Assembly (NCBI RefSeq): GCF_036507355.1 | Contig: NZ_AP027877.1 | Direction: 5' to 3' (one strand) | Length of the DNA stretch: 64,000 bases | Source: Escherichia coli | GTDB lineage: Bacteria; Pseudomonadota; Gammaproteobacteria; Enterobacterales; Enterobacteriaceae | Translations under genes and position numbers: made by a program | Shown: piece after piece, positions 14,662 to 53,188 of the stretch | Layout of the letters: the number at the start of each line of letters is the position of its first letter | Numbering within the stretch: position 1 is the first letter of the stretch | The notes under the pieces: generated by a model | The model's input: the letters and a program-made list of their open reading frames with translations, nothing else | Told to the model about the DNA's origin: nothing | Databases searched by the model: none

Positions 14662-15130
14662 TCGCCCGCAGCCATCACTGACTGCGGGCGAAAGTGTAAA
14701 GCAGGTGCCTTACCACTCTGACCTGACAACCGGATATGCGGGGATTGCTCCCCGCACAACGGCTACTTCTTCGGTTCGTAAGCGAGAACAGCCTTAAACT
14801 CAATATTACGTTCCTTTACGGTGAACTCACACAGCGAGTCTCCGACCAGAAGCGTAAATCCCAGCACCGTCAAACACAGCACTATGACTGCCACAAGGGC
14901 ATATTTCGTCAGCATGTTTATATTGCCTCCATGCGAAGAAGGGACTACCATCCGAGTTGTTGAGGCTCGGAGTGGCAGCCCCAGGATTGATAGAAATATC
15001 TCCTGGGGCTTCATCTTTCCAGACCTCAGAGTTAACCTGAAACCGGAAAGCTTCAGGCACCCGCCGTTATCTTACCCTTCCTTAGCAAAATAGCTGTTTA
15101 TTTATACAGTGAATCCTGTTTCGGACTTCT
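14662..15130 (-). other. hokE-like type I toxin-antitoxin locus, copy 1 (repeat unit)
   Basis: About 470-bp unit containing a Hok toxin ORF, upstream mok-like leader and a terminal inverted repeat (cgcccgcag...ctgcgggcg); repeated with 503-bp period at 15165-15632. Confidence 0.8.
14763..14915 (-). CDS. hokE: Hok-family membrane toxin (HokE-like), copy 1
   Basis: 50-aa peptide [50 protein letters not shown], typical Hok/Gef toxin with one transmembrane helix. Confidence 0.85.
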
Positions 15131-15164
15131 GTCGGCAAAACTCATCATTGCTCTTAAAACGAAA

Positions 15165-15632
15165 TCGCCCGCAGCCATCACTGACCGCGGGCGAAAGTGT
15201 AAAGCAGGTGCCTTACCATCCTGACCTGACAACCGGATATGCGGGGATTACTCCCCGCACAACGGCTACTTCTTCGGTTCGTAAGCGAGAACAGCCCTGA
15301 ACTCAATATTACGTTCCTTCACCGTAAACTCACACAGCGAGTCTCCGACCAGAAGCGTAAATCCCAGTACCGTCAAACACAGCACTATGACTGCCACAAG
15401 GGCATATTTCGTCAGCATGTTTATATTGCCTCCATGCGAAGAAGGAACTACCATCCAAATTGTCTGGTTTGGAGTGGCAGCCCCAGGGTTGATAGAAATA
15501 TCTCCTGGGGCTTCATCTTTCCAGACCTCAGAGTAAACCTGAAACCGGAAAGCTTCAGGCACCCGCCGTTATCTTACCTTTGCTTAGCAAAATAGCTGTT
15601 TATTTATACAGTAAGTCCTGTTTCGGACTTCT
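15165..15632 (-). other. hokE-like type I toxin-antitoxin locus, copy 2 (repeat unit)
   Basis: Second unit, roughly 95% identical to copy 1 with scattered substitutions and a 1-nt indel in the leader. Confidence 0.8.
15266..15418 (-). CDS. Hok-family membrane toxin (HokE-like), copy 2
   Basis: 50-aa peptide identical to copy 1 except K41R (…[14 protein letters not shown]). Confidence 0.85.
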
Positions 15633-21370: not shown

Positions 21371-24300
21371 TTATTTCCGTACCCGATGTCGGTGCAGCCA
21401 CATCAGCTTATACGCCGCCGGGATAATAAACAGCGACAGCAAAGGCGCGGTGATCATGCCGCCAATCATCGGCGCGGCAATCCGGCTCATCACCTCTGAC
21501 CCTGCTCCTGTTCCCCACAGAATCGGCAGCAGACCAGCGATAATCACCGCCACCGTCATCGCTTTCGGGCGCACGCGCAGTACCGCGCCGTGATACAACG
21601 CCTCATCCAGCTTCTGCTCGCTGAATGTTTGCGGATTATTCAACGACGGCTCGGCCTCTATGGCGTGACGTAAATACATCAGCATCACCACGCCAAATTC
21701 GGCGGCGACCCCGGCGAGGGCGATAAAGCCAGTGCCCGTCGCCACAGAAAGATGAAAGCCCATCCACCACAGCAACCAGATGCCGCCCACCAGCGCAAAC
21801 GGTACGCTGCTGATAATCAGCAACGCTTCGCCCACCCGACGGAATGCCAGATACAACAGCACGAAGATGATCATCAACGTCATCGGCACCATGAGTTTCA
21901 GCTTATGGTTGGCGCGCTCCAGTAGCTCGAACTGCCCGGAGAACGCCACGCTGGTGCCCGGTTTTAACTGCACTTTTTCAGCTATCGCTTTTTGCAGATC
22001 GTGAACCACCGACACCATGTCACGATCGCGGGCATCGATATAAATCCAGCTCGTCGGGCGCGCATTCTCGGTTTTCAGCATCGACGGTCCGGTAGAGACG
22101 TTAACGTCGGCCACGTCCGCCAGGGTGATTTGCTGCTTCATCGGCGTCAGGATCGGCAACTGGCGCAGCGCCTGCGGGCTATCGCGCCAGCTTTGCGGAT
22201 AACGCAGATTAATGGGATAACGGGCAATTCCTTCCACCATTTCGCCAACCATCGCCCCGCCCACCGCAGATGTCACAAACAATTGCACATCCGCCACCGT
22301 CATACCGTAACGCGCGGCTTTTTCACGGTTAATCTCAACGTTGATATAGCGCCCACCTTCCAGACGCTCGGCAAGCGCAGAAGCCACGCCTGGCACCGTT
22401 CGCGCCACTTCTTCAATTTGCTCCGCCATCGCGTCGATATCCGCCAGCACAGTGCCGGAAACTTTAATGCCGATGGGGCTTTTAATGCCGGTTGAGAGCA
22501 TATCGATACGGTTACGAATTGGCGGCACCCACAGATTCGCCAGCCCCGGCAGACGCACGGTGTTATCCAGTTCCTCAATGATTTTGTCCATCGTCATGCC
22601 TGGCCGCCACTGATCCTGTGGCTTAAGCTGAATGGTCGTTTCAACCATCTCCAGCGGAGCAGAATCGGTGGCGGTTTCCGCTTTCCCGGTTTTGCCAAAT
22701 ACCCGCGCCACTTCAGGTACGCTCATAATCAGCTTGTCGGTTTTTTGCAGCATACTCGCCGCCTCTGCTGCGGAAATCCCCGGCAGCGTCGATGGCATAT
22801 ACAACAAGTCGCCTTCATTGATCTGCGGTAAAAATTCCCCGCCAACTTTATTGAGCGGCCAGAGAACCGTCAGCACCGAAAGCGCTGCCACCAGCAGCGT
22901 GGTTTTCGGCCAGTGCAGTACTTTCAGCAATAGCGGATGATAAACACGAATCAAAAAGCGATTGAGCGGGTTACTGCTTTCCGGCGGAATTTTGCCACGG
23001 ATCCAGTAACCCATCAGGATAGGGATCACCACGATCGCCAGCAGCGCCGCGCCCGCCATCGCATACGTTTTGGTGAACGCCAGCGGGCCAAACAGACGCC
23101 CTTCCTGCCCTTCCAGGGTGAAGATCGGGATAAACGACAGTGTGATAATCAGCAGACTGATAAACAACGCCGGTCCCACTTCAACAGACGCATCGGTAAT
23201 CACCTGCCAGCGCGTTTTATTATCCAGCGTGGCGTCAGGATGCTGGTGCTGCCACTCTTCCAGCCGTTTATGCGCATTCTCGATCATGACGATAGCGGCA
23301 TCGACCATCGCCCCGACGGCAATCGCAATACCGCCCAGCGACATAATATTGGCATTCAGCCCCTGGAAGTGCATGACAATAAAAGCAATACACAACCCCA
23401 GCGGCAACGAAATAATCGCCACCAGCGCCGAGCGCACATGCCAGAGAAACAGCGCACAGACTACCGCCACCACAATAAACTCTTCCAGCAACTTGCCGCT
23501 GAGGTTGTCGATGGCCCGGTCAATGAGCTGGCTGCGATCGTATGTTGTAACTATCTCCACGCCTTCCGGCAGACTACTTTTCAGCGTTTCCAGTTTGTCC
23601 TTCACGGCGGCGATCACTTCTCGGGCGTTTTTGCCGGAGCGCAGGATCACCACCCCGCCCGCAACTTCGCCTTCGCCGTTCAGTTCGGCAATGCCCCGGC
23701 GCATCTCCGGGCCAACCTGGACCTTCGCAACATCACGCAGATAAACGGGCACGCCATTTTCACTGGCTTTTAAAACGATGTGATTAAAGTCGTCGAGCGT
23801 TTGCAGATAGCCGCTGGCGCGCACCATATATTCCGCTTCCGCCAGTTCGATCGACGAACCGCCCGCTTCCTGGTTTGAAGCATCCAGCGCATTTTTCACT
23901 TCGCCGAGACTGATGCCATACTGCGCCAGGCGCTGAGGATCGATAACCACCTGATACTCTTTCACCACACCGCCCACCGACGCCACTTCCGCAACGTCAG
24001 GGATGGTTTTTAGCTCATATTTGAGAAACCAGTCCTGCAATGAGCGTAAATCGGCCAGATCGTGCTTACCGCTGCGATCCACCAATGCATATTCATAGAT
24101 CCAGCCAACACCCGTGGCATCTGGCCCCAGCTCGGCGCTGACTCCCGCAGGCAGCTTACCCTGTACCTGGTTGAGGTACTCCAGCACCCGCGAGCGCGCC
24201 CAGTACGGATCGGTGCCATCTTCGAAAATGACATACACATAAGAGTCGCCAAACTGCGAGAAACCACGCACAGTCTTCGCGCCAGGCACCGACAACATGG

Positions 24301-24514
24301 TGGTAGTTAGCGGATAAGTCACCTGATTTTCAACGATTTGCGGTGCCTGACCGGGATAGCTGGTTTTAATAATCACCTGCACATCGGAGAGATCCGGCAG
24401 CGCATCCACTGGCGTATTAATGATGGTCCAGGTGCCCCAGATACTTAGAAACAACGCGCCCATCAGCACCAAAAAACGGTTCGCCACCGAGCGACGAATA
24501 ATCCATTCAATCAT
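21371..24514 (-). CDS. cusA: RND copper/silver efflux pump CusA
   Basis: 1047-aa RND transporter; N-terminal [23 protein letters not shown]. Confidence 0.97.
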
Positions 24515-24525
24515 TGGTTATTCCC

Positions 24526-25749
24526 TCAATGCGCATGGGTAGCACTTTCAGAGCGCATCCGCTCCAGTGCGCCAGAAATATTGGCTTCGGAATCAATCAG
24601 GAACAGGCCGCTGGAAACCACCTTTTCACCTTCCGCCAGACCAGAGCGTAATGCGGTGACACCTTGCGATGCCTGGAAAACGGCAACGCGTTTTGGTACA
24701 AAGCGCCCGTCGGCATCAACGGTAATCACCCGCTGTTCGCTGCCGGTATCAATCAGCGCTTGTGACGGAATGAGCAGCATCGGTTCGCTGGCGGTATTGA
24801 GTTGCAACCAGGCGTTCATTCCCGGTTTTAGCGCCTCGTCGGCGTTGTCGACTTCCAGACGCAGCTGCAGCGTGCGGGTCGCGGCATCCACGCCAGGTAG
24901 TAGCGTCCATTTGCGGATGGTGAGTGTTTTATCAGGTCGCGCCGGAACGGTGAGCGTAAACTGCGAGGCATCTTTCACCAGCCAGGCGATGGACTCCGGG
25001 ATCGCAGCAGTGACCCACACCGGGTCCATACCCTGAATTTTCGCTACCACGTTATCTTTGGCGATATTCATTCCCGCGCGCAGATCAAACGCGGTGATCA
25101 CGCCATCAATGGGTGCTTTGAGCGTAAAGCGAGTCTGGATTTTTTGCGTGGCGATCAGGCGGCGAATATCCGCCTCCGGCATTCCCGCCAGTCGCAGCCG
25201 CTCAAGAATGCCTTCAGTCTGGGTCGCCGTACCGCCGGTTTCGCGCAGCAGTAAATACTCACTCTGCGCTTCCACCCAGTCAGGAATGGTCAGGTCGAGA
25301 AGCGGTGCGCCCTTTTGTACTTTATCGCCCACGGTAAGCGGATACACCTTGTCGATAAACCCGGCAGCGCGAGCCTGCACAATGGCATACTGATACTCGT
25401 TGTAACTGACATTCGCCGGGAAACTCTGGGCAAAAGTCAGCGGTCCGCGCGTGACGGTAGCCGTTTTCACCCCCAGATTCTGCGTCTGAGTCGGGTCAAT
25501 GCGCACACCAGACGCAGAACTCTCTTCATCGGCATATTTCGGCACCAGATCCATATCCATAAACGGCGATTTACCTGGTTTATCGAACCGCGTATTGGGA
25601 TACATCGGGTCGTACCAGAATAAGATTTTACGTTCTGCGGTCGACGTTTTTTCTGCAGGCGGTTCCGCCTTTGCAAACCAGGTAAAACCTGCCGCAGAAA
25701 TAATACCGCCCGCGATCATGCTGCCGATAATAAGCGCGATTTTTTTCAT
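24526..25749 (-). CDS. cusB: Membrane fusion protein CusB
   Basis: 407-aa periplasmic adaptor immediately downstream of cusF and upstream of cusA. Confidence 0.95.
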   Translation of the reverse strand: MKKIALIIGSMIAGGIISAAGFTWFAKAEPPAEKTSTAERKILFWYDPMYPNTRFDKPGKSPFMDMDLVPKYADEESSASGVRIDPTQTQNLGVKTATVTRGPLTFAQSFPANVSYNEYQYAIVQARAAGFIDKVYPLTVGDKVQKGAPLLDLTIPDWVEAQSEYLLLRETGGTATQTEGILERLRLAGMPEADIRRLIATQKIQTRFTLKAPIDGVITAFDLRAGMNIAKDNVVAKIQGMDPVWVTAAIPESIAWLVKDASQFTLTVPARPDKTLTIRKWTLLPGVDAATRTLQLRLEVDNADEALKPGMNAWLQLNTASEPMLLIPSQALIDTGSEQRVITVDADGRFVPKRVAVFQASQGVTALRSGLAEGEKVVSSGLFLIDSEANISGALERMRSESATHAH

Positions 25750-25764
25750 CTCATTAAACCTGGG

Positions 25765-26097
25765 TTACTGGCTGACTTTAATATCCTGTAATAAAGAAAG
25801 GTTGCCCTGCTGGACAAAATTAAACGCCACTTTGTCGCCAGTTTTAATTTCACTCATTTTCGTCTGCGGAGTGATGGTAAAGCGCATGGTCATCTCCGGC
25901 CAGTTCACGGCAGCAATCGGATCGTGATGGATGGTGATTTTTTTGCTTTCCAGATCAACACCTTTTACCACGCCGGTGGCACTAATGACCTGTGGTTGTG
26001 CTTCGCTCATGGTTTCATGATGATGTTCGTTAGCCTGGGCATTAAAGCCAATAACGGTAAACAGACTGAACATTGCGACTTGCAGTGCTTTTTTCAT
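25765..26097 (-). CDS. cusF: Periplasmic copper/silver chaperone CusF
   Basis: 110-aa secreted protein with a His-rich N-terminal region (NEHHHETMSEAQPQVIS) and the Met/Trp metal-site region. Confidence 0.95.
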   Translation of the reverse strand: MKKALQVAMFSLFTVIGFNAQANEHHHETMSEAQPQVISATGVVKGVDLESKKITIHHDPIAAVNWPEMTMRFTITPQTKMSEIKTGDKVAFNFVQQGNLSLLQDIKVSQ

Positions 26098-26120
26098 TTA
26101 TTTTCTCCTGGAGTTAAAAA

Positions 26121-27503
26121 TTATTGCTGCCAACCGCCACCAAGTGCGGTATATAAAGAAATTTCGTTGACCTGACGGGCATAATTCAGGTCAAGTAAGG
26201 TTTGTCGGGTTGCAAATAAAGAACGCTCGGCATCCAGCACTTCCAGATAACTTACCGCGCCGTGCTGATATAATGCCCGCGCCCGTTGCAAAGTAATTTG
26301 CAGCGACGCCAGATAACGCTGCTGGGCGCTGATTTGATCGTTCAGGCTTTGACGTAATGCCAGCGCATCTGCCACTTCTTTAAAGGCGTTCTGGATTTTC
26401 TGTTCATAATTCACTACCGACTGCTGCTGGCGAATTTCGGCGATATCCAGATTGGCCTGGTTGCGTCCGGCATTAAAAATGGGGATCTCAATTTTAGGAA
26501 TAAAATTCCACATCCCGCTGCTGGCGTTAAATAATGACGACAGATCGCTGCTGGCGGTTGATATTCCGCTGGTCAGGCTTATAGATGGGAAAAATGCCGC
26601 GCGTGCGGCCCCAATATTGGCATTAGCCGCCATTAACGCGTGTTCAGCTTCCATAATATCCGGGCGCTGCAATAAGATTTGCGACGACAAGCCCGCCGGT
26701 AATTTAACGCTTTGCAGGCTGTCGCTGTTTACTGTCTGCGCTTGCGGCAGCTTGCCGTAGCTTCCCAATAACAGTTGCAATGCATTATTCGCCTGCGCCA
26801 GTTCCCCCTGACGTTTAGCGATGTCACTGCGGGTACTTTCTATCACCCCGCGAGCCTGTTCCAGCGCCAGAACATTGCTGCTACCGGTCAACAGTTGTTT
26901 TTCGACAAACGCATATGACTGCTGATAATTACGCAGCGTTTCTTCGGCTATTTGCAATTGCGCATACGCCAGTTGCTGATTGAAATAGCTTTGCGCGACA
27001 TTAGAAACCAGCAGAATATGCACCGCGCGCTGAGCTTCCTCAGTGGCTAAATAATTTTGTCGCTCGGCTTCGCTCATGTTCTTTAAGCGCCCGAAAAAAT
27101 CGAGGTCAAAGCTGGCGTTAAGGCCAGTAGAAAACTCCCGCGTCGTGGCTGAATCGCCTTTAAGATTGCCGCTCCAGCTGCCGCTGCCCTCGCCATTGAG
27201 CTGTGGGTAGCGGTCGGCATCGGTCAGACGATATTGCGCCCGTGCCTCCTGCACTTTCAGCGTCGCCATGCGCAAATCCCGGTTATTCACCAGCGCCTCG
27301 CTAATCAGCGTCTTCACCTGATTATCAACAAAAAAGGTGCGCCAGCCCGCGTTCTGATAGTTATCTGCTGCGTTAACGAGGCCGTTCTGGCTGAGTGAGA
27401 ACTGCTGCGGTACGGGCATTGCCGGGCGCTGATAATCCGGTGCCAGTGAACAACCGGTTAGCGCAAGGGCCACACAAAATGGCAGAAGTTTACAAGGAGA
27501 CAT
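26121..27503 (-). CDS. cusC: Outer membrane efflux lipoprotein CusC
   Basis: 460-aa ORF with a lipoprotein signal (LALTGCSL), OMF/TolC-like. Confidence 0.95.
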   Translation of the reverse strand: MSPCKLLPFCVALALTGCSLAPDYQRPAMPVPQQFSLSQNGLVNAADNYQNAGWRTFFVDNQVKTLISEALVNNRDLRMATLKVQEARAQYRLTDADRYPQLNGEGSGSWSGNLKGDSATTREFSTGLNASFDLDFFGRLKNMSEAERQNYLATEEAQRAVHILLVSNVAQSYFNQQLAYAQLQIAEETLRNYQQSYAFVEKQLLTGSSNVLALEQARGVIESTRSDIAKRQGELAQANNALQLLLGSYGKLPQAQTVNSDSLQSVKLPAGLSSQILLQRPDIMEAEHALMAANANIGAARAAFFPSISLTSGISTASSDLSSLFNASSGMWNFIPKIEIPIFNAGRNQANLDIAEIRQQQSVVNYEQKIQNAFKEVADALALRQSLNDQISAQQRYLASLQITLQRARALYQHGAVSYLEVLDAERSLFATRQTLLDLNYARQVNEISLYTALGGGWQQ

Positions 27504-27572
27504 AGGCTCATAATTTCTGGTGATTTTATACCGCCAACTTTACTCGCCAGGCTCTGATTTTCCGGTGACAGG

Positions 27573-27594
27573 AAAATGACAAAATTGTCATTTT
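27573..27594. promoter_or_regulatory. CusR box in the cusC-cusR divergent promoter
   Basis: Perfect palindrome aaaatgacaaaattgtcatttt (AAAATGACAA-NN-TTGTCATTTT) centred in the 156-bp intergenic region. Confidence 0.8.
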
Positions 27595-27659
27595 GCCAAT
27601 AAGCGATTGCCATCTGATCCCGCTACTCTAGAATTGCCCGGGCAACATGCGGAGGAAAT

Positions 27660-28343
27660 ATGAAACTGTTGATTGTCGAAGATGAAAAGAAAACCGGAGA
27701 ATACTTGACCAAAGGGTTAACCGAAGCCGGTTTTGTGGTCGATTTGGCCGACAACGGGCTGAATGGCTACCATCTGGCGATGACCGGTGATTATGATCTG
27801 ATAATCCTCGATATTATGCTGCCGGACGTGAACGGCTGGGATATCGTGCGCATGTTGCGCTCCGCCAATAAAGGGATGCCGATTCTGTTGCTTACCGCGC
27901 TTGGCACCATTGAACATCGCGTCAAGGGGCTGGAGTTGGGGGCAGATGACTACCTGGTGAAACCATTCGCTTTTGCTGAACTACTGGCGCGGGTGCGCAC
28001 TCTCCTGCGGCGCGGGGCGGCGGTGATTATCGAAAGTCAGTTTCAGGTTGCCGATCTGATGGTCGATCTCGTCAGCCGCAAAGTCACCCGCAGCGGCACG
28101 CGCATCACTTTGACCAGTAAAGAGTTTACTCTGCTGGAGTTTTTTCTCCGCCATCAGGGCGAAGTGCTGCCCCGCTCGCTTATCGCCTCGCAGGTATGGG
28201 ACATGAATTTTGACAGCGACACTAACGCCATTGATGTGGCGGTGAAGCGGCTGCGCGGCAAAATCGACAACGACTTTGAGCCGAAGCTGATTCAGACCGT
28301 GCGCGGCGTGGGCTATATGCTTGAGGTACCTGATGGTCAATAA
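27660..28343 (+). CDS. cusR: Copper-responsive response regulator CusR (OmpR family)
   Basis: 227-aa ORF with a receiver domain ([12 protein letters not shown]...[11 protein letters not shown]) and a winged-helix C-terminus. Confidence 0.95.
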
Positions 28344-29775
28344 GCCATTTCAGCGCCCGTTTTCGCTGGCAACCCGCCTGACCTTTTTTATCAGCCTGGC
28401 CACCATCGCGGCGTTTTTCGCCTTTGCATGGATCATGATCCACTCAGTAAAAGTGCATTTTGCCGAGCAGGATATTAATGATTTAAAAGAGATTAGCGCC
28501 ACCCTTGAACGGGTACTAAATCACCCTGACGAAACGCAAGCCCGACGCTTAATGACGCTGGAAGATATCGTCAGTGGTTATTCCAACGTGTTGATTTCCC
28601 TGGCAGATAGCCACGGCAAAACGGTGTATCACTCCCCCGGTGCGCCTGATATCCGCGAGTTTGCACGTGATGCCATACCCGATAAAGACGCGCGGGGTGG
28701 CGAGGTGTATCTCCTTTCCGGCCCGACGATTATGATGCCAGGCCACGGTCACGGGCATATGGAACACAGCAACTGGCGGATGATTAACTTGCCGGTTGGC
28801 CCGTTGGTGGACGGCAAACCGATTTATACGCTATACATCGCGCTGTCGATCGATTTTCATCTTCATTACATAAATGATTTGATGAATAAACTTATTATGA
28901 CCGCATCGGTAATCAGCATCCTGATCGTCTTTATCGTGCTGTTGGCGGTACATAAAGGTCACGCGCCGATCCGCAGCGTCAGCCGTCAAATCCAGAATAT
29001 CACCTCGAAAGATCTCGACGTTCGCCTCGACCCGCAGACCGTGCCCATTGAGCTGGAACAGCTGGTACTGTCGTTCAACCATATGATCGAGCGTATTGAG
29101 GATGTCTTTACCCGCCAGTCCAATTTCTCAGCGGATATCGCTCACGAAATTCGCACGCCGATTACCAATCTCATCACGCAAACGGAAATCGCCCTCAGCC
29201 AGTCTCGCAGCCAGAAGGAGCTGGAAGATGTGCTCTACTCTAATCTCGAAGAGCTGACGCGAATGGCGAAAATGGTCAGCGATATGCTGTTTCTCGCTCA
29301 GGCCGATAACAACCAGCTAATCCCCGAAAAGAAAATGCTCAACCTGGCGGATGAAATCGGCAAAGTGTTCGATTTTTTCGAGGCGTTAGCGGAAGATCGC
29401 GGCGTGGAGTTGCGATTTGTTGGCGACGAGTGCCAGGTTGCGGGCGATCCGCTGATGCTGCGTCGGGCGTTAAGCAACCTGCTTTCGAACGCCCTGCGTT
29501 ATACGCCACCCGGAGAGGCTATTGTAGTACGCTGCCAGACGGTCGATCATCTGGTGCAAGTTATCGTCGAAAACCCCGGTACGCCCATTGCGCCCGAGCA
29601 CTTACCGCGATTGTTTGACCGTTTCTACCGCGTTGACCCCTCCCGCCAACGAAAAGGCGAAGGTAGCGGCATTGGGCTGGCGATAGTGAAATCGATTGTT
29701 GTCGCACATAAAGGCACGGTTGCAGTAACGTCAGATGCGCGGGGAACAAGATTTGTTATCACATTACCCGCTTAA
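28333..29775 (+). CDS. cusS: Copper/silver sensor histidine kinase CusS
   Basis: 480 aa from the ATG at 28333, overlapping the cusR 3' end; H-box ([10 protein letters not shown]) and ATPase motifs present. Confidence 0.95.
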
Positions 29776-29924
29776 TCCTTCAGCAAACGGCAACTTTTAT
29801 AACCAGTGTAAAAATAACGTGCCGCAATAGTCATACCTATTAATGGTAAAAAGCTGTCACAATTCATAAAAAACCTTAATATACGCCACCCTAAACATAA
29901 CCAGCGTTAATGTAAGGTTTTTGT

Positions 29925-32162
29925 GTGGACTGGCTTCTTGATGTTTTTGCTACCTGGCTCTATGGCTTAAAAGTAATCGCGATAACGTTAGCGGTCATCA
30001 TGTTCATCAGCGGGCTGGACGATTTTTTTATTGATGTCGTCTACTGGGTACGCCGCATTAAACGCAAGTTGAGTGTTTATCGCCGCTACCCGCGAATGAG
30101 TTACCGCGAACTGTATAAACCAGATGAAAAACCGTTAGCGATTATGGTTCCGGCGTGGAATGAAACGGGCGTCATCGGCAATATGGCCGAGCTGGCGGCG
30201 ACCACGCTCGACTACGAAAACTATCATATCTTTGTTGGCACCTACCCCAACGACCCCGATACTCAGCGTGATGTTGACGAAGTGTGCGCTCGCTTCCCGA
30301 ATGTGCATAAGGTAGTCTGCGCGCGTCCTGGCCCCACCAGCAAAGCCGACTGTCTGAACAACGTGCTGGACGCCATCACCCAGTTTGAACGTAGCGCCAA
30401 TTTCGCATTTGCTGGTTTTATTCTGCATGACGCCGAAGATGTGATTTCACCGATGGAGTTGCGTCTGTTCAACTATCTGGTCGAGCGTAAAGATCTGATT
30501 CAGATCCCGGTATACCCATTCGAACGCGAATGGACGCACTTCACCAGCATGACTTACATTGATGAGTTTTCAGAACTGCATGGCAAAGATGTTCCGGTGC
30601 GTGAAGCCCTCGCCGGACAAGTGCCCAGCGCAGGCGTCGGCACCTGTTTCAGCCGCCGCGCCGTGACCGCACTGTTAGCTGACGGTGACGGTATTGCTTT
30701 CGACGTGCAGAGTCTTACTGAAGATTACGACATTGGCTTCCGCCTGAAAGAAAAAGGTATGACGGAAATTTTTGTCCGTTTTCCGGTGGTGGACGAAGCC
30801 AAAGAACGCGAGCAGCGTAAATTTTTACAGCACGCACGGACGTCAAACATGATCTGCGTGCGCGAATATTTCCCCGATACCTTTTCGACTGCGGTTCGAC
30901 AAAAATCTCGCTGGATCATCGGCATTGTTTTCCAGGGCTTTAAAACCCACAAATGGACCTCCAGCCTGACGCTGAACTACTTTCTCTGGCGCGACCGCAA
31001 AGGGGCAATCAGTAACTTTGTCAGCTTCCTCGCAATGCTGGTGATGATCCAGCTTTTGCTGTTGCTGGCGTATGAAAGTTTGTGGCCCGATGCCTGGCAT
31101 TTCCTTTCTATTTTTAGCGGCAGCGCATGGTTAATGACCCTGCTGTGGCTAAACTTTGGCTTGATGGTTAACCGCATCGTGCAGCGGGTGATTTTCGTCA
31201 CTGGCTACTACGGCCTGACGCAGGGGCTACTATCTGTCCTGCGTCTTTTCTGGGGCAACCTGATTAACTTTATGGCCAACTGGCGCGCGTTAAAACAGGT
31301 ACTTCAACACGGCGATCCACGTCGCGTCGCGTGGGATAAAACAACGCATGACTTCCCCAGCGTCACTGGCGATACCCGCTCGTTGCGCCCGTTAGGTCAA
31401 ATTCTGCTGGAAAATCAGGTCATCACTGAAGAACAGCTCGATACAGCACTGCGTAATCGCGTCGAAGGTCTACGCCTGGGCGGTTCAATGCTGATGCAGG
31501 GGCTGATTAGCGCCGAGCAGCTGGCACAGGCGCTGGCAGAGCAAAACGGCGTGGCGTGGGAATCCATCGATGCCTGGCAGATCCCGTCCTCGCTGATTGC
31601 CGAAATGCCGGCCTCCGTGGCGCTGCATTATGCGGTACTGCCGCTGCGTCTGGAAAATGATGAGTTAATTGTCGGCAGTGAAGATGGTATTGACCCGGTT
31701 TCGCTGGCGGCCCTGACACGTAAAGTCGGACGCAAAGTGCGTTACGTCATTGTTCTGCGGGGACAAATTGTCACGGGGTTACGTCACTGGTATGCACGCC
31801 GACGCGGTCACGATCCGCGGGCAATGTTGTACAATGCGGTTCAGCATCAGTGGCTCACGGAACAGCAGGCCGGTGAAATCTGGCGGCAATATGTGCCGCA
31901 TCAGTTCCTGTTCGCCGAAATACTGACCACGCTCGGTCATATTAATCGTTCAGCAATTAACGTGTTGTTATTGCGCCATGAACGCAGTTCTCTGCCGCTC
32001 GGCAAGTTTTTGGTCACCGAAGGCGTTATCAGCCAGGAAACGTTGGATCGCGTCCTGACAATTCAACGCGAATTACAAGTTTCGATGCAATCACTATTAC
32101 TCAAAGCAGGTTTAAACACAGAACAGGTTGCGCAACTGGAGTCCGAAAATGAAGGAGAATAA
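29925..32162 (+). CDS. nfrB: NfrB: inner-membrane family-2 glycosyltransferase with a C-terminal MshEN-type c-di-GMP-binding domain (phage N4 adsorption protein B)
   Basis: 745-aa ORF from a GTG start (MDWLLDVF...); GT2 motifs (DAEDV, QKSRW) and a C-terminal region resembling MshEN domains. Confidence 0.93.
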   Translation: MDWLLDVFATWLYGLKVIAITLAVIMFISGLDDFFIDVVYWVRRIKRKLSVYRRYPRMSYRELYKPDEKPLAIMVPAWNETGVIGNMAELAATTLDYENYHIFVGTYPNDPDTQRDVDEVCARFPNVHKVVCARPGPTSKADCLNNVLDAITQFERSANFAFAGFILHDAEDVISPMELRLFNYLVERKDLIQIPVYPFEREWTHFTSMTYIDEFSELHGKDVPVREALAGQVPSAGVGTCFSRRAVTALLADGDGIAFDVQSLTEDYDIGFRLKEKGMTEIFVRFPVVDEAKEREQRKFLQHARTSNMICVREYFPDTFSTAVRQKSRWIIGIVFQGFKTHKWTSSLTLNYFLWRDRKGAISNFVSFLAMLVMIQLLLLLAYESLWPDAWHFLSIFSGSAWLMTLLWLNFGLMVNRIVQRVIFVTGYYGLTQGLLSVLRLFWGNLINFMANWRALKQVLQHGDPRRVAWDKTTHDFPSVTGDTRSLRPLGQILLENQVITEEQLDTALRNRVEGLRLGGSMLMQGLISAEQLAQALAEQNGVAWESIDAWQIPSSLIAEMPASVALHYAVLPLRLENDELIVGSEDGIDPVSLAALTRKVGRKVRYVIVLRGQIVTGLRHWYARRRGHDPRAMLYNAVQHQWLTEQQAGEIWRQYVPHQFLFAEILTTLGHINRSAINVLLLRHERSSLPLGKFLVTEGVISQETLDRVLTIQRELQVSMQSLLLKAGLNTEQVAQLESENEGE

Positions 32163-35121
32163 CCTTAATCGCGTCATCGGATGGTCTGGTTTACTGCTGA
32201 CGTCTTTATTGAGTACCAGCGCACTCGCAGACAATATCGGCACCAGCGCAGAAGAGCTGGGGCTGAGCGATTATCGCCATTTTGTTATTTATCCCCGTCT
32301 CGATAAGGCGCTGAAGGCACAGAAAAATAACGACGAAGCAACCGCCATCCGCGAATTTGAATATATACACCAGCAGGTGCCGGATAATATTCCGCTGACT
32401 TTATACCTTGCGGAAGCCTATCGCCATTTTGGTCATGATGACCGGGCGCGGCTGTTGCTTGAGGATCAACTGAAACGTCACCCAGGAGATGCCCGACTTG
32501 AGCGCAGTCTGGCGGCTATTCCGGTTGAAGTGAAAAGCATTACAACTGTTGAAGAACTGCTTGCCCAGCAAAAAGCGTGCGATGCTGCGCCGACCCTGCG
32601 TTGTCGCAGTGAAGTCGGGCAGAATGCCCTGCGGCTGGCACAGTTACCTGTCGCCAGAGCGCAACTGAACGATGCGACGTTTGCTGCATCGCCGGAAGGA
32701 AAAACGCTGCGAACCGATCTGCTGCAACGGGCAATCTACCTGAAACAATGGTCCCAGGCAGATACGCTATACAATGAAGCACGCCAGCAGAACACATTAA
32801 GCGCGGCAGAACGCCGCCAGTGGTTTGATGTGCTTCTTGCCGGGCAGCTGGACGATCGGATCCTGGCACTGCAATCACAGGGGATCTTCACCGATCCTCA
32901 GTCATATATTACTTACGCGACCGCGCTGGCTTATCGTGGCGAAAAAGCACGCCTCCAGCATTATCTCATTGAAAATAAGCCGCTGTTTACCACGGACGCA
33001 CAAGAGAAAAGTTGGCTCTATCTGTTATCTAAATACAGCGCCAACCCCGTTCAGGCATTGGCGAATTATACGGTGCAGTTTGCCGATAACCGCCAGTATG
33101 TTGTTGGCGCGACGCTACCGGTGCTGTTAAAAGAAGGTCAGTACGACGCAGCGCAAAAACTGCTCGCCACCCTCCCCGCCAATGAAATGCTTGAGGAGCG
33201 TTATGCTGTCAGCGTGGCGACCCGTAACAAGGCTGAAGCTCTGCGTCTGGCACGCTTGCTGTATCAGCAAGAACCGGCAAATCTTACCCGCCTGGATCAA
33301 CTAACCTGGCAACTGATGCAGAACGAGCAGTCACGGGAAGCTGCCGATTTATTGCTGCAACGCTATCCTTTCCAGGGCGATGCGCGTATCAGCCAGACTT
33401 TAATGGCGCGACTGGCGTCTCTGCTGGAAAGTCATCCTTACCTGGCAACGCCGGCGAAGGTGGCGATTTTATCGAAACCCTTACCGCTGGCGGAGCAACG
33501 TCAGTGGCAAAGTCAGTTGCCGGGTATTGCAGATAATTGCCCGGCAATAGTTCGCTTGCTGGGCGATATGTCGCCTTCCTACGATGCTGCCGCCTGGAAC
33601 CGTCTGGCAAAGTGTTATCGGGACACGCTACCCGGTGTGGCGTTGTATGCATGGCTTCAGGCCGAACAACGACAACCGAGCGCCTGGCAACATCGTGCGG
33701 TAGCCTATCAGGCGTATCAGGTTGAGGACTACGCCACCGCACTGGCGGCCTGGCAGAAAATCAGTCTTCACGACATGAGCAATGAGGATCTGCTTGCTGC
33801 TGCCAATACCGCCCAGGCGGCAGGAAATGGTGCGGCTCGCGATCGCTGGCTACAACAGGCAGAACAACGTGGACTGGGAAGCAATGCCCTCTACTGGTGG
33901 CTGCATGCACAACGTTACATTCCTGGTCAGCCGGAACTCGCACTGAACGATCTCACGCGCTCAATCAATATTGCGCCTTCTGCCAACGCTTACGTTGCGC
34001 GGGCGACAATTTATCGCCAACGTCATAATGTCCCGGCCGCGGTGAGTGATTTGCGCGCCGCGCTGGAACTGGAACCGAATAATAGCAACATCCAGGCAGC
34101 GCTTGGTTACGCCTTGTGGGATAGCGGTGATATCGCACAGTCGCGGGAAATGCTCGAACAGGCGCATAAAGGGCTTCCGGACGATCCGGCACTGATCCGA
34201 CAACTGGCCTACGTGAACCAGCGTCTGGATGACATGCCTGCGACGCAGCACTACGCCCGGCTGGTGATTGATGACATTGATAATCAGGCGCTGATAACCC
34301 CATTGACGCCAGAACAAAATCAACAACGCTTCAATTTCCGCCGTTTGCATGAGGAGGTCGGTCGCCGCTGGACGTTCAGTTTCGATTCTTCTATCGGCTT
34401 GCGTTCCGGCGCAATGAGTACCGCTAACAATAATGTCGGCGGCGCAGCGCCAGGGAAAAGCTATCGTAGCTACGGGCAACTGGAAGCCGAGTACCGCATC
34501 GGACGCAATATGCTGCTGGAAGGCGACCTGCTCTCAGTTTATAGCCGCGTCTTTGCCGATACCGGAGAAAACGGGGTGATGATGCCGGTGAAAAATCCGA
34601 TGTCCGGCACCGGTCTGCGCTGGAAGCCGCTGCGCGATCAGATCTTTTTCCTCGCCGTCGAACAGCAGTTGCCGCTGAACGGGCAAAATGGCGCATCCGA
34701 TACCATGCTGCGCGCCAGCGCCTCATTCTTTAATGGCGGCAAATACAGCGACGAATGGCACCCGAACGATTCAGGCTGGTTTGCCCAAAACCTGTACCTC
34801 GATGCGGCGCAATATATCCGCCAGGATATTCAGGCGTGGACGGCAGATTATCGCGTCAGCTGGCATCAGAAGGTAGCTAACGGACAGACTATTGAGCCTT
34901 ACGCTCACGTTCAGGACAACGGCTATCGTGATAAAGGCACTCAGGGCGCGCAGCTTGGCGGTGTCGGGGTCCGCTGGAATATCTGGACCGGCGAGACGCA
35001 CTACGACGCCTGGCCGCACAAAGTCAGTCTCGGCGTCGAGTATCAACATACCTTTAAGGCGATTAATCAACGTAACGGAGAGCGCAACAACGCGTTTCTC
35101 ACCATTGGAGTGCACTGGTAA
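32149..35121 (+). CDS. nfrA: NfrA: outer membrane TPR/beta-barrel protein (phage N4 adsorption protein A)
   Basis: 990 aa from the ATG at 32149 (MKENNLNRVIGWSGLLLTSLLSTSALA signal peptide), overlapping the nfrB 3' end by 14 nt; C-terminal ...TIGVHW. Confidence 0.93.
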   Translation: MKENNLNRVIGWSGLLLTSLLSTSALADNIGTSAEELGLSDYRHFVIYPRLDKALKAQKNNDEATAIREFEYIHQQVPDNIPLTLYLAEAYRHFGHDDRARLLLEDQLKRHPGDARLERSLAAIPVEVKSITTVEELLAQQKACDAAPTLRCRSEVGQNALRLAQLPVARAQLNDATFAASPEGKTLRTDLLQRAIYLKQWSQADTLYNEARQQNTLSAAERRQWFDVLLAGQLDDRILALQSQGIFTDPQSYITYATALAYRGEKARLQHYLIENKPLFTTDAQEKSWLYLLSKYSANPVQALANYTVQFADNRQYVVGATLPVLLKEGQYDAAQKLLATLPANEMLEERYAVSVATRNKAEALRLARLLYQQEPANLTRLDQLTWQLMQNEQSREAADLLLQRYPFQGDARISQTLMARLASLLESHPYLATPAKVAILSKPLPLAEQRQWQSQLPGIADNCPAIVRLLGDMSPSYDAAAWNRLAKCYRDTLPGVALYAWLQAEQRQPSAWQHRAVAYQAYQVEDYATALAAWQKISLHDMSNEDLLAAANTAQAAGNGAARDRWLQQAEQRGLGSNALYWWLHAQRYIPGQPELALNDLTRSINIAPSANAYVARATIYRQRHNVPAAVSDLRAALELEPNNSNIQAALGYALWDSGDIAQSREMLEQAHKGLPDDPALIRQLAYVNQRLDDMPATQHYARLVIDDIDNQALITPLTPEQNQQRFNFRRLHEEVGRRWTFSFDSSIGLRSGAMSTANNNVGGAAPGKSYRSYGQLEAEYRIGRNMLLEGDLLSVYSRVFADTGENGVMMPVKNPMSGTGLRWKPLRDQIFFLAVEQQLPLNGQNGASDTMLRASASFFNGGKYSDEWHPNDSGWFAQNLYLDAAQYIRQDIQAWTADYRVSWHQKVANGQTIEPYAHVQDNGYRDKGTQGAQLGGVGVRWNIWTGETHYDAWPHKVSLGVEYQHTFKAINQRNGERNNAFLTIGVHW

Positions 35122-36012
35122 ATGCGTAAGTTCATTTTCGTATTGCTGACACTGCTTTTGGTCAGCCCTTTTTCCTTTGCGATGAAAGGTATTATCTGGC
35201 AACCACAAAACCGTGATAGTCAGGTTACCGATACCCAGTGGCAGGGGCTGATGAGTCAGTTACGTTTGCAAGGCTTCGATACCCTGGTTTTGCAATGGAC
35301 CCGTTACGGCGATGCATTTACCCAGCCAGAACAGCGCACGTTATTGTTTAAGCGGGCCGCAGCTGCGCAACAGGCTGGCCTGAAGCTGATTGTCGGGCTG
35401 AACGCCGATCCGGAATTTTTTATGCACCAGAAACAGTCGTCCGCAGCGCTGGAAAGCTATCTTAATCGCCTGCTGGCTGCCGATCTCCAGCAAGCCAGAT
35501 TATGGAGCGCCGCGCCTGGCGTAACGCCGGATGGCTGGTACATCAGCGCGGAAATTGACGACCTGAACTGGCGCAGCGAAGCCGCCCGTCAGCCTTTGCT
35601 AACATGGTTAAACAACGCGCAGCGGCTGATTAGCGATGTTTCAGCAAAACCGGTTTATATCAGTAGTTTTTTCGCCGGAAACATGTCGCCAGATGGCTAT
35701 CGCCAACTGCTGGAACACGTTAAAGCAACCGGCGTTAATGTCTGGGTACAGGATGGCAGCGGCGTGGATAAACTTACCGCTGAACAGCGTGAACGTTATC
35801 TACAGGCCAGCGCCGATTGCCAGAGTTCCGCCCCAGCAAGCGGCATTGTTTATGAACTGTTTGTCGCCGGCAAAGGCAAAACCTTTACAGCGAAACCGAA
35901 ACCGGACGCAGAAATTGCCTCGCTGTTAGCGAAACGTTCCTCTTGCGGTAAAGACACTCTCTATTTCTCTCTGCGCTATTTGCCCGTCGCGCACGGCATT
36001 CTCGAGTATTAA
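35122..36012 (+). CDS. ybcH: YbcH, secreted protein co-encoded with NfrA/NfrB
   Basis: 296-aa ORF starting immediately after the nfrA stop; signal peptide MRKFIFVLLTLLLVSPFSFA. Confidence 0.9.
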   Translation: MRKFIFVLLTLLLVSPFSFAMKGIIWQPQNRDSQVTDTQWQGLMSQLRLQGFDTLVLQWTRYGDAFTQPEQRTLLFKRAAAAQQAGLKLIVGLNADPEFFMHQKQSSAALESYLNRLLAADLQQARLWSAAPGVTPDGWYISAEIDDLNWRSEAARQPLLTWLNNAQRLISDVSAKPVYISSFFAGNMSPDGYRQLLEHVKATGVNVWVQDGSGVDKLTAEQRERYLQASADCQSSAPASGIVYELFVAGKGKTFTAKPKPDAEIASLLAKRSSCGKDTLYFSLRYLPVAHGILEY

Positions 36013-36194
36013 ATCTCCTCCAGGTAAGTCGGGTACGACCTGGCTTACCTCTTTCGCTCTCGTCAGAATTCCATCAAGATTAATTGCTAAAAAGCGTGCT
36101 AAAGAAAGAAGATCGTTATCGGCGAACGGGCCGATCACTCATGCAGGAAGCATAGATCCTTTGAGCGGAGTTTCTGATATCTGAGGAGTGCGAA

Positions 36195-36956
36195 ATGCAA
36201 TTGAGCAGCAGTGAACCTTGCGTGGTGATCCTGACCGAAAAAGAGGTAGAGGTAAGCGTCAATAACCATGCTACGTTTACCCTTCCGAAAAACTACCTGG
36301 CCGCCTTCGCGTGCAACAATAACGTCATTGAACTCTCAACGTTAAATCACGTATTAATCACCCACATCAACCGTAACATCATCAACGATTATCTGTTGTT
36401 TTTAAATAAGAACTTAACCTGTGTAAAGCCCTGGTCGCGGCTGGCTACCCCGGTTATCGCTTGTCATAGCCGTACACCGGAAGTGTTCCGGCTAGCCGCC
36501 AACCACAGCAAGCAGCAACCTAGCAAACCCTGCGAAGCGGAGTTGACGCGCGCATTGCTTTTTACCGTATTGTCTAACTTTCTTGAGCAATCGCGGTTTA
36601 TTGCCCTACTGATGTATATCTTACGCAGCAGCGTCCGCGACAGCGTCTGCCGCATTATTCAAAGCGATATTCAGCATTACTGGAATCTGCGAATTGTCGC
36701 CAGTTCGCTATGTTTAAGCCCCAGCCTGCTCAAAAAGAAATTAAAAAACGAAAATACCAGCTATAGCCAGATTGTCACAGAGTGTCGTATGCGTTACGCC
36801 GTACAGATGTTATTGATGGATAACAAAAATATCACTCAGGTGGCGCAATTATGTGGCTATAGCAGCACGTCGTACTTTATCTCTGTTTTTAAGGCGTTTT
36901 ACGGCCTGACACCGTTGAATTATCTCGCCAAACAGCGACAAAAAGTGATGTGGTGA
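36195..36956 (+). CDS. envY: AraC-family transcriptional regulator EnvY
   Basis: 253-aa ORF with a C-terminal AraC-type HTH (…ITQVAQLCGYSSTSYFISVFKAFYGLTP…). Confidence 0.9.
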   Translation: MQLSSSEPCVVILTEKEVEVSVNNHATFTLPKNYLAAFACNNNVIELSTLNHVLITHINRNIINDYLLFLNKNLTCVKPWSRLATPVIACHSRTPEVFRLAANHSKQQPSKPCEAELTRALLFTVLSNFLEQSRFIALLMYILRSSVRDSVCRIIQSDIQHYWNLRIVASSLCLSPSLLKKKLKNENTSYSQIVTECRMRYAVQMLLMDNKNITQVAQLCGYSSTSYFISVFKAFYGLTPLNYLAKQRQKVMW

Positions 36957-37001
36957 AGGGCAAAGCGGAAACGGATAAGACGGGCATAAATGAAGAAGAA
37001 A

Positions 37002-37078
37002 TGGCGCGCCCTGCAGGATTCGAACCTGCGGCCCACGACTTAGAAGGTCGTTGCTCTATCCAACTGAGCTAAGGGCGC
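37002..37078 (-). tRNA. argU: tRNA-Arg (anticodon UCU), argU
   Basis: Reverse complement reads GCGCCCTTAGCTCAGTTGGATAGAGCAACGACCTTCTAAGTCGTGGGCCGCAGGTTCGAATCCTGCAGGGCGCGCCA: cloverleaf with TTCGAATCC T-arm, UCU anticodon and CCA end. Confidence 0.93.
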
Positions 37079-37320
37079 GTTGATACCGCAATGCGGTGTA
37101 ATCGCGTGAATTATACGGTCAACCCTTGCTGAGTCAATGGCTTTTGATCTGGTTGCTGAACAAGTGAACGACCGCGTCTGATTTTCTGATTTATTTCGCT
37201 ATAGCGGCAAACAAATGCACACCGCTGCGCATCTGAATCAAGAAAACCCGTATTTTCATGTATCAAAGTACAATTTACCGCCCTAACGGAAAATTGTCCG
37301 CTCCTATGAGACTGGTAACT

Positions 37321-37529
37321 ATGAAACCAACGTCGGTGATCATTATGGATACTCATCCTATCATCAGAATGTCTATTGAAGTTCTGTTGCAAAAAAACAG
37401 TGAATTGCAGATTGTCCTGAAAACGGATGATTACCGCATAACCATCGATTATCTCCGAACCCGTCCTGTTGATTTAATCATTATGGATATAGACTTGCCC
37501 GGAACAGACGGTTTTACCTTCCTGAAAAG
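37321..37529 (+). pseudogene. fimZ: 5' fragment of response-regulator gene fimZ (receiver domain only), truncated by IS1
   Basis: Encodes MKPTSVIIMDTHPIIRMSIEVLLQKNSELQIVLKTDDYRITIDYLRTRPVDLIIMDIDLPGTDGFTFLKR, then runs into the IS1 terminal repeat (…VMTPTY*). Confidence 0.85.
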
Positions 37530-37544
37530 GGTAATGACTCCAAC

Positions 37545-38048
37545 TTATTGATAGTGTTTTATGTTCAGATAATGCCCGATGACTTTGTCATGCAGCTCCA
37601 CCGATTTTGAGAACGACAGCGACTTCCGTCCCAGCCGTGCCAGGTGCTGCCTCAGATTCAGGTTATGCCGCTCAATTCGCTGCGTATATCGCTTGCTGAT
37701 TACGTGCAGCTTTCCCTTCAGGCGGGATTCATACAGCGGCCAGCCATCCGTCATCCATATCACCACGTCAAAGGGTGACAGCAGGCTCATAAGACGCCCC
37801 AGCGTCGCCATCGTGCGTTCACCGAATACGTGCGCAACAACCGTCTTCCGGAGCCTGTCATACGCGTAAAACAGCCAGCGCTGGCGCGATTTAGCCCCGA
37901 CATAGCCCCACTGTTCGTCCATTTCCGCGCAGACGATGACGTCACTGCCCGGCTGTATGCGCGAGGTTACCGACTGCGGCCTGAGTTTTTTAAGTGACGT
38001 AAAATCGTGTTGAGGCCAACGCCCATAATGCGGGCTGTTGCCCGGCAT
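37545..38048 (-). CDS. insB: IS1 InsB (transposase frame; InsAB' is made by -1 frameshift)
   Basis: 167-aa [28 protein letters not shown]… overlapping the insA 3' end in the -1 frame. Confidence 0.95.
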
Positions 38049-38242
38049 CCAACGCCATTCATGGCCATATCAATGATTTTCTGGTGCGTACCGGGTTGAG
38101 AAGCGGTGTAAGTGAACTGCAGTTGCCATGTTTTACGGCAGTGAGAGCAGAGATAGCGCTGATGTCCGGCGGTGCTTTTGCCGTTACGCACCACCCCGTC
38201 AGTAGCTGAACAGGAGGGACAGCTGATAGAAACAGAAGCCAC
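37967..38242 (-). CDS. insA: IS1 InsA
   Basis: 91-aa protein [42 protein letters not shown]…. Confidence 0.95.
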
Positions 38243-38525
38243 TGGAGCACCTCAAAAACACCATCATACACTAAATCAGTAAGTTGGCAGCATCACCAAT
38301 TATCTTAATCCTTTGACAAGGAAATAAGTCAGTTCCAGATTTACAACGCCATCATGGACGAAAAATGAAGCTTTCAATCTCAGCGACCTCAGCGACGGTG
38401 CGCCTAACCTTCGCAAGAGGTCGCTTCACGCGATAAATCTGAAACGAAACCTGACAGCGCGCCCCGCTTCTGACAAAATAGGCGCATCCCCTTCGACCTA
38501 CGTAACAGATGGAATCCTCTCTCTG

Positions 38526-44749: not shown

Positions 44750-45000
44750 ATTTGATTGCCGGATGCGGCGTAAACGCCTTATCCAGCCTACCGATCCGGC
44801 ACCCATTGTAGGCCTGATAAGATGCGTCAAGCGTCGCATCAGGCATTGTGCGCCAATTGCCGGATGCGGCACCAATTGTAGGCCTGATAAGACGCGTCAA
44901 GCGTCGCATCAGGCATTGTGCGCCAATTGCCGGATGCGGCACCAATTGTAGGCCTGATAAGACGCGTCAAGCGTCGCATCAGGCACAAATGTCTAATGCC
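44750..45000. repeat. Cluster of REP palindromes (BIME) in three tandem units of about 70 bp
   Basis: gccggatgcggc…tgtaggcctgataagacgcgtcaagcgtcgcatcaggc repeated three times between convergent purK and ybcF. Confidence 0.85.
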
Positions 45001-52291: not shown

Positions 52292-53077
52292 ATGGGATAT
52301 TTAAATAACGTCACCGGTTACCGCGATGATTTACTGGCTAACCGTGCGATTGTGAAACACGGTAATTTCGCACTGTTAACACCAGACGGTCTGGTAAAAA
52401 ATATTATTCCGGGCTTTGAAAATTGTGACGCGACAATCCTCTCCACGCCAAAGCTGGGTGCCTCTTTTGTTGATTATCTGGTCACACTGCATCAAAACGG
52501 TGGCAACCAACAGGGCTTCGGTGGCGAAGGCATTGAAACGTTCCTGTATGTGATCTCTGGAAATATCACTGCCAAAGCCGAAGGCAAAACATTTGCCTTA
52601 AGCGAAGGTGGCTATCTTTATTGCCCGCCAGGCTCCTTAATGACGTTTGTTAACGCCAAGGCCGAAGACAGCCAAATCTTTTTATATAAGCGCCGCTATG
52701 TTCCGGTAGAAGGCCATGCACCGTGGCTGGTTTCTGGCAATGCCAGCGAACTGGAACGCATTCACTATGAAGGTATGGATGATGTGATCCTGCTGGATTT
52801 TCTGCCCAAAGAGTTAGGTTTTGATATGAACATGCATATCCTCTCTTTTGCACCAGGTGCCAGCCATGGTTATATCGAAACACACGTTCAGGAACACGGT
52901 GCCTATATTCTTTCCGGTCAGGGGGTTTATAACCTCGACAATAACTGGATCCCGGTGAAAAAAGGCGATTACATCTTTATGGGCGCTTATTCTTTACAGG
53001 CTGGTTATGGCGTAGGGCGTGGTGAAGCGTTCAGCTATATTTACTCGAAAGATTGTAACCGCGACGTAGAGATTTAA
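52292..53077 (+). CDS. allE: (S)-ureidoglycine aminohydrolase AllE (YlbA), bicupin
   Basis: 261-aa ORF MGYLNNVTGYRDDLLANRAIVKHGNF…. Confidence 0.93.
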   Translation: MGYLNNVTGYRDDLLANRAIVKHGNFALLTPDGLVKNIIPGFENCDATILSTPKLGASFVDYLVTLHQNGGNQQGFGGEGIETFLYVISGNITAKAEGKTFALSEGGYLYCPPGSLMTFVNAKAEDSQIFLYKRRYVPVEGHAPWLVSGNASELERIHYEGMDDVILLDFLPKELGFDMNMHILSFAPGASHGYIETHVQEHGAYILSGQGVYNLDNNWIPVKKGDYIFMGAYSLQAGYGVGRGEAFSYIYSKDCNRDVEI

Positions 53078-53119
53078 ATCATACCACTCGCCTGATTATT
53101 TTTAGCTATGTTGGATTTT

Positions 53120-53147
53120 GCCACGGTTTATACCGTGGCTTTTTTTG
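53120..53147 (+). terminator. Rho-independent terminator of the allDCE operon
   Basis: Hairpin gccacggtttataccgtggc followed by TTTTTTT. Confidence 0.7.
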
Positions 53148-53161
53148 TAGTAAATTCAGGT

Positions 53162-53188
53162 AAAAAAAGATGCGAAATAAATCGCATC
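53162..53188 (-). terminator. Rho-independent terminator downstream of glxK
   Basis: Hairpin gatgcgaaataaatcgcatc preceded on the plus strand by AAAAAAA (a U-run on the minus-strand transcript). Confidence 0.65.

Follow-up and report, generated by a model that had tools for sequence, protein, structure and literature searches.

The attachment site of prophage DLP12 at argU is unoccupied in this Escherichia coli strain, whose lineage probably lost an ompT-appY lambdoid prophage from this place recently, by recombination between two 47-bp attachment cores. There is no DLP12-like element at the argU locus of the 64,000-nucleotide stretch that we analysed (hereafter the window), and the region at 36957-37100, judged from its sequence, is very probably an unoccupied attB for DLP12-type lambdoid prophages that target argU. 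The junction is a structural fact of the sequence and not a statistical signal, and chance is irrelevant to it.

The distance from the envY stop codon to the 3' end of argU, which the earlier note had put at about 45 bp, is exactly 45 bp (36957-37001). This spacer matches the bacterial side of attR in K-12, where the corresponding 45 bp lie between the partial tRNA copy of attR and envY and differ by one SNP. A consensus scan detected no terminator in the spacer. ARAGORN found a single tRNA gene in the window, a tRNA-Arg with the anticodon tct/UCU; this is argU, which is complete (37002-37078, minus strand) and identical to K-12 argU at 77/77 bases, and the Rfam tRNA model RF00005 matches it over 37005-37078 with 72.1 bits. 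The 47-bp DLP12 attachment core (37000-37046, minus strand) consists of the last 45 nt of argU followed by TT and reads CTTCTAAGTCGTGGGCCGCAGGTTCGAATCCTGCAGGGCGCGCCATT. It is present once, with no 20-mer of the core found elsewhere in the 64 kb, whereas K-12 has two copies, at the ends of DLP12. A promoter-like site, TTGACT-16-TATAAT, lies at 37110-37137 on the minus strand and may serve argU, a function suggested by 11/12 matches in a consensus scan only. The ORFs adjoining argU are envY and a truncated fimZ, with no intD, lambdoid gene, appY or ompT between them, and the bacterial arms of attL and attR are joined directly via one core without a scar.

The earlier note placed DLP12, appY and ompT between argU and envY in K-12, and the MG1655 annotation bears this out. 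The annotated order is fimZ-argU-(DLP12: intD ... appY, ompT)-envY-ybcH-nfrA-nfrB, with argU at 564723-564799, the "cryptic prophage DLP12" at 564755..586056 and envY at 586147-586908. When the whole window was compared by BLAST with K-12 560000-596000, two segments were found around the argU site: window 27103-37049 corresponds to K-12 596000-586054, and window 37000-37530 to K-12 564801-564271. The two segments overlap solely in the core (37000-37046/49). Nowhere in the 64-kb window was there a BLAST match to K-12 564802-586053, the interval of intD, the prophage genes, appY and ompT. The K-12 stretch missing from the window is the annotated DLP12 of 21.3 kb, and both of its flanks are colinear with K-12. 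With the core located by this comparison, present in a single copy and bordered by both bacterial flanks, the earlier description of the argU site as unoccupied stands.

In occupied genomes, an integrase-mediated crossover inside the 47-bp core would split attB. Integration would leave an intact argU followed by intD at attL and a 47-bp partial tRNA copy followed by envY at attR, with the prophage and its appY-ompT cargo in between. Ramisetty and Sudhakari (2019; PMC6379469) described the integration of DLP12 into the 3' end of argU and a repeat of 47 bp at attR, and it is in that paper that Lindsey et al. (1989) is cited for the attachment of DLP12 at argU.

The genes on the envY side were all said earlier to be kept, and all of them are intact. 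The gene for the AraC-family regulator EnvY (36195-36956, plus strand) encodes 253 aa, of which 252/253 are identical to K-12 EnvY. No EnvY-specific NCBIfam model scored above its cutoff, the top match being GadX with 166.9 bits against a cutoff of 500, and the identity of envY therefore rests on the K-12 match together with source names: the exact EnvY sequence of the window carries the name EnvY in NCBI sources, and the RefSeq annotation of the matching genomes is envY. The gene ybcH (DUF4434; 35122-36012, plus strand) encodes 296 aa, 293/296 identical to K-12, and matches NF007404 with 521.9 bits (cutoff 344). Farther from the junction, nfrA (32149-35121, plus strand) encodes 990 aa with 983/990 identical to K-12 and matches the NCBIfam model NF007302, "phage receptor", with 1890.6 bits against a cutoff of 1223, and nfrB (29925-32162, plus strand) is colinear with K-12, has no internal stops and is identical to K-12 NfrB at 745/745 aa. 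The view that envY is flanking chromosome and not prophage cargo is supported, because envY lies outside attR in K-12, its start (586147) coming after the end of DLP12 (586056), and because all of the 2,503 complete genomes described below whose site is empty retain it.

On the other side of argU, fimZ is truncated by IS1 after codon 70, giving a 76-aa fusion ORF (37321-37551, plus strand) in which residues 1-70 are those of K-12 FimZ and the remainder is IS1. The truncated fimZ matches positions 1-71 of the 210 positions of the FimZ profile NF007403. The IS1 copy (768 bp, 37530-38297) joins fimZ codon 70 to the upstream region of folD. It is complete, with its terminal inverted repeats present, but there is no 9-bp target duplication, and the flanks CCTGAAAAG and AATTATCTT differ. 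K-12 557961-564270 is missing from the window, that is, sfmA, sfmC, sfmD, sfmH and sfmF together with the 3' part of fimZ. The lack of a target-site duplication suggests that IS1 removed the whole sfm fimbrial operon by an adjacent deletion.

The same junction between fimZ codon 70 and IS1 recurs in further E. coli lineages, whose identity to the window is just 98-99%. Exact matches to the 76-aa fusion ORF came from these lineages only; one of them, the pig isolate HCP6S3_I2, has the same envY-argU-fimZ'-IS1-folD architecture. This common junction may mark a hot spot of insertion, or else an old allele that has spread horizontally. When the fusion is read from an alternative start that gives 97 aa, an exact match was found only on a 593-bp metagenome scaffold. 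An IS1 junction of GCA_900195525.1 lies 11 bp from the folD-side junction of the window (near window 38309), and GCA_905398585.1, one of the close relatives discussed below, carries an extra IS1 near window 53077 (53077-53170, between allE and glxK) that the window is without. IS1 is active and variable in the lineage of the window. At window 14741-15255 the hokE/sokE region appears to be tandemly duplicated, with two copies of K-12 607621-608010 (95.6% and ~98% identical), each preceded by sequence of K-12 609348-609438, and the IS186 of K-12 is absent there. Between ybcF and purK (44793-44985), overlapping BLAST segments indicate one more copy of a ~70-bp repeat than in K-12; the repeat is probably of the REP/BIME type and variable in copy number.

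To place the junction among other strains, we surveyed 5,426 complete RefSeq E. coli genomes and scored the site as empty when at least 80% of window 36100-37400 was found in one place, an occupied site covering at most 73%. A contiguous empty junction was found in 2,503/5,426 genomes (46%), and argU followed by a K-12-type integrase in 2,778 (51%). The K-12-type junction from ompT to envY was present in 1,577 (29%), and ompT was found anywhere in the genome in 3,095 (57%). The empty argU/DLP12 site is one of two common states in E. coli, already known and ordinary. Loci with and without the prophage have been compared before, and DLP12 was reported at argU in 74% of 638 Escherichia/Shigella genomes (PMC6379469).

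The earlier note had concluded from the empty site that the strain lacks the OmpT protease gene, and this step is unsupported. Since 2,503 and 3,095 add up to more than 5,426, at least 172 complete genomes combine an empty argU site with ompT elsewhere. In O157:H7 TR01 (NZ_CP033605.1), for example, the empty junction is at 0.66 Mb, and an ompT 100% identical to that of K-12 is found at 1.599 Mb in a prophage remnant adjoining minCDE. An empty argU site therefore does not imply an ompT-negative strain, and the absence of a gene should not be inferred from one locus.

The appY-ompT pair behaves as mobile prophage cargo, also at loci other than argU. Many different lambdoid prophages, of which some have complete tail modules, carry it at their right end, and CP125919.1 has the module twice in one genome, one copy beside a different integrase. 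A separate arrangement was seen in GCA_039758115.1, where the order is folD, integrase fragment, methyltransferase, ompT and ybcH; envY, sfm and fimZ are gone from this genome along with the bulk of the prophage, and its large deletion at this locus is an independent one.

Among complete RefSeq E. coli genomes, identity to the window does not exceed 99.1% on either flank, which marks the near-identical draft assemblies as genuinely close relatives. An NfrA exactly like that of the window is encoded on 8 contigs. Over window 22149-37046 (14,898 bp), GCA_047852605.1 has 0 mismatches, and a single mismatch is present in each of GCA_905398585.1 and GCA_044688185.1. All three contigs stop matching the window exactly at 37046, the last base of the core, and then run into ompT, appY and lambdoid genes for a tail-fibre assembly protein, a head protease and a portal. 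The Logan contigs L008 and L046 (SRR31122001, SRR32181686) stop at 37029, exactly the position at which a repeated core would break a k=31 graph. GCA_905398585.1 also has the same IS1/folD junction (38297/38298), and that flank is 99.96-99.99% identical to the window. Its contig end inside the prophage was checked for IS1, which would have indicated a different deletion structure, and it is not IS1.

A reading of the strain as Shigella, for which the IS1 copy, the lack of ompT and the lack of any complete E. coli genome above 99.1% might speak, was considered and rejected. All records of the exact NfrA and FdrA sequences name Escherichia coli, and ompT is present in the closest relatives.

The right end of the relatives' prophage is colinear with the decayed DLP12 remnant of K-12 at 98.7-98.9% identity. 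One of the relatives has an IS insertion in the prophage, and the element has lost sequence internally, between its genes for the head protease and for tail-fibre assembly. The IS insertion and the colinearity with the decayed K-12 remnant make this prophage look old and not newly acquired. Within the sampled clone, which otherwise carries this defective DLP12-like prophage, the window strain appears to be the sole member with an empty site.

Because the near-identical relatives all carry an ompT-appY prophage that starts where the core ends, we consider that the lineage of the window strain probably lost such a prophage recently; this reading is based on 8 relative contigs and their envY-side junction. 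An ancestor would have carried the ompT-appY lambdoid prophage at the argU site, and the prophage would have been lost by recombination between its two 47-bp cores, mediated either by integrase and excisionase or by RecA. Both routes would give an identical product, which the window sequence cannot tell apart. In K-12, Hha reportedly can induce the excision of DLP12 (PMC4632033). We lean, by a little, towards the more specific view that the strain is a natural, very recent and base-perfect excisant of a defective ompT-appY prophage that the other sampled members of the clone retain.

It is also conceivable, but in our judgement rather unlikely, that the site was never occupied in the direct ancestry of the strain and that the relatives gained an argU-targeting appY-ompT prophage after divergence. 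The empty state is frequent (46% of complete genomes), and lambdoid prophages that integrate at argU, have full tail modules and encode the same AppY protein are widespread, so that active phages of this type circulate. In addition, the relatives' element keeps the portal and head-protease genes, which are absent from K-12 DLP12; being richer in phage genes than DLP12, it could have been acquired later, and this counts against a recent loss. However, all 8 of the 8 contigs with the NfrA allele of the window look occupied and the window alone is empty, and the defects of the element together with a right end ~98.8% identical to the K-12 remnant point to long residence.

The relatives are relevant also to the quality of the assembly: as all of the closest ones are occupied, attL and attR might have been joined across the 47-bp repeat, with about 20-40 kb dropped or misplaced. 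This we regard as very improbable. The junction is base-perfect and has the same structure as in the 2,503 natural genomes, and to collapse tens of kb of unique sequence in a long-read or hybrid assembly would take a repeat far longer than 47 bp. Furthermore, the GenBank protein numbers of NfrA (BED23386) and FdrA (BED23402) are 16 apart, which equals the gene count of the empty configuration.

About equally improbable is an import of the empty allele by homologous recombination, through transduction or conjugation from a donor with an empty site, replacing a resident prophage. Recombination is frequent in E. coli, and 1.3 kb at the junction are 99.8% identical to O157:H7 and other strains, as against at most 99.1% over longer flanks. 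But the left flank is 100% identical to the occupied relatives up to the core, so that an imported tract must start within or beyond the core, and on the right side merely 484 bp lie between the core and IS1; moreover, the high conservation of envY and argU can account for the 99.8%. Loss of a resident prophage by recombination between its cores is the reading that we prefer for the lineage of the window strain.

If it is correct, "grounded" prophages of the DLP12 type would still be cleanly lost in the wild, and the strain and its relatives would offer an isogenic-like pair for the question, raised for Shigella and enteroinvasive E. coli (EIEC), of whether DLP12 was excised or never present. 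Compared with the window strain, the near-identical relatives that bear the prophage provide a small but concrete example of a presence/absence polymorphism of a prophage within a clone. For strain typing, the absence of DLP12 at argU and the deletion of the sfm operon by IS1 can be used. ompT-negative genotypes are found in Shigella, EIEC and BL21, and a possibly ompT-negative background in the window strain would matter for protein-expression hosts and for phenotypes that depend on OmpT.

Among known systems, the K-12 DLP12 site has the same tRNA gene, the same 47-bp core and the same flanks (fimZ on one side, envY-ybcH-nfrAB on the other) as the window; in K-12 the site is occupied, 21.3 kb separating its two cores, whereas in the window it is unoccupied and has one core. 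O157:H7 TR01 has the same empty envY-argU-fimZ junction as the window, 99.8% identical over 1.3 kb, and differs in what can be seen of ompT, which it carries elsewhere, beside minCDE, while its argU site is empty. In Shigella and EIEC, ompT and the DLP12 region are absent at the K-12 locus, as in the window. The part of PMC5723341 that cites Nakata et al. (1993) presents this absence as a pathoadaptive, "antivirulence" loss, and whether the Shigella and EIEC lineages never hosted DLP12 or excised it is left undecided there. The window strain differs from these in that it is labelled E. coli, that no invasion-plasmid context is visible in the 64 kb and that its lineage is not a known EIEC one, and also in having close relatives that bear the prophage, which hint at a loss in the lineage of the window.
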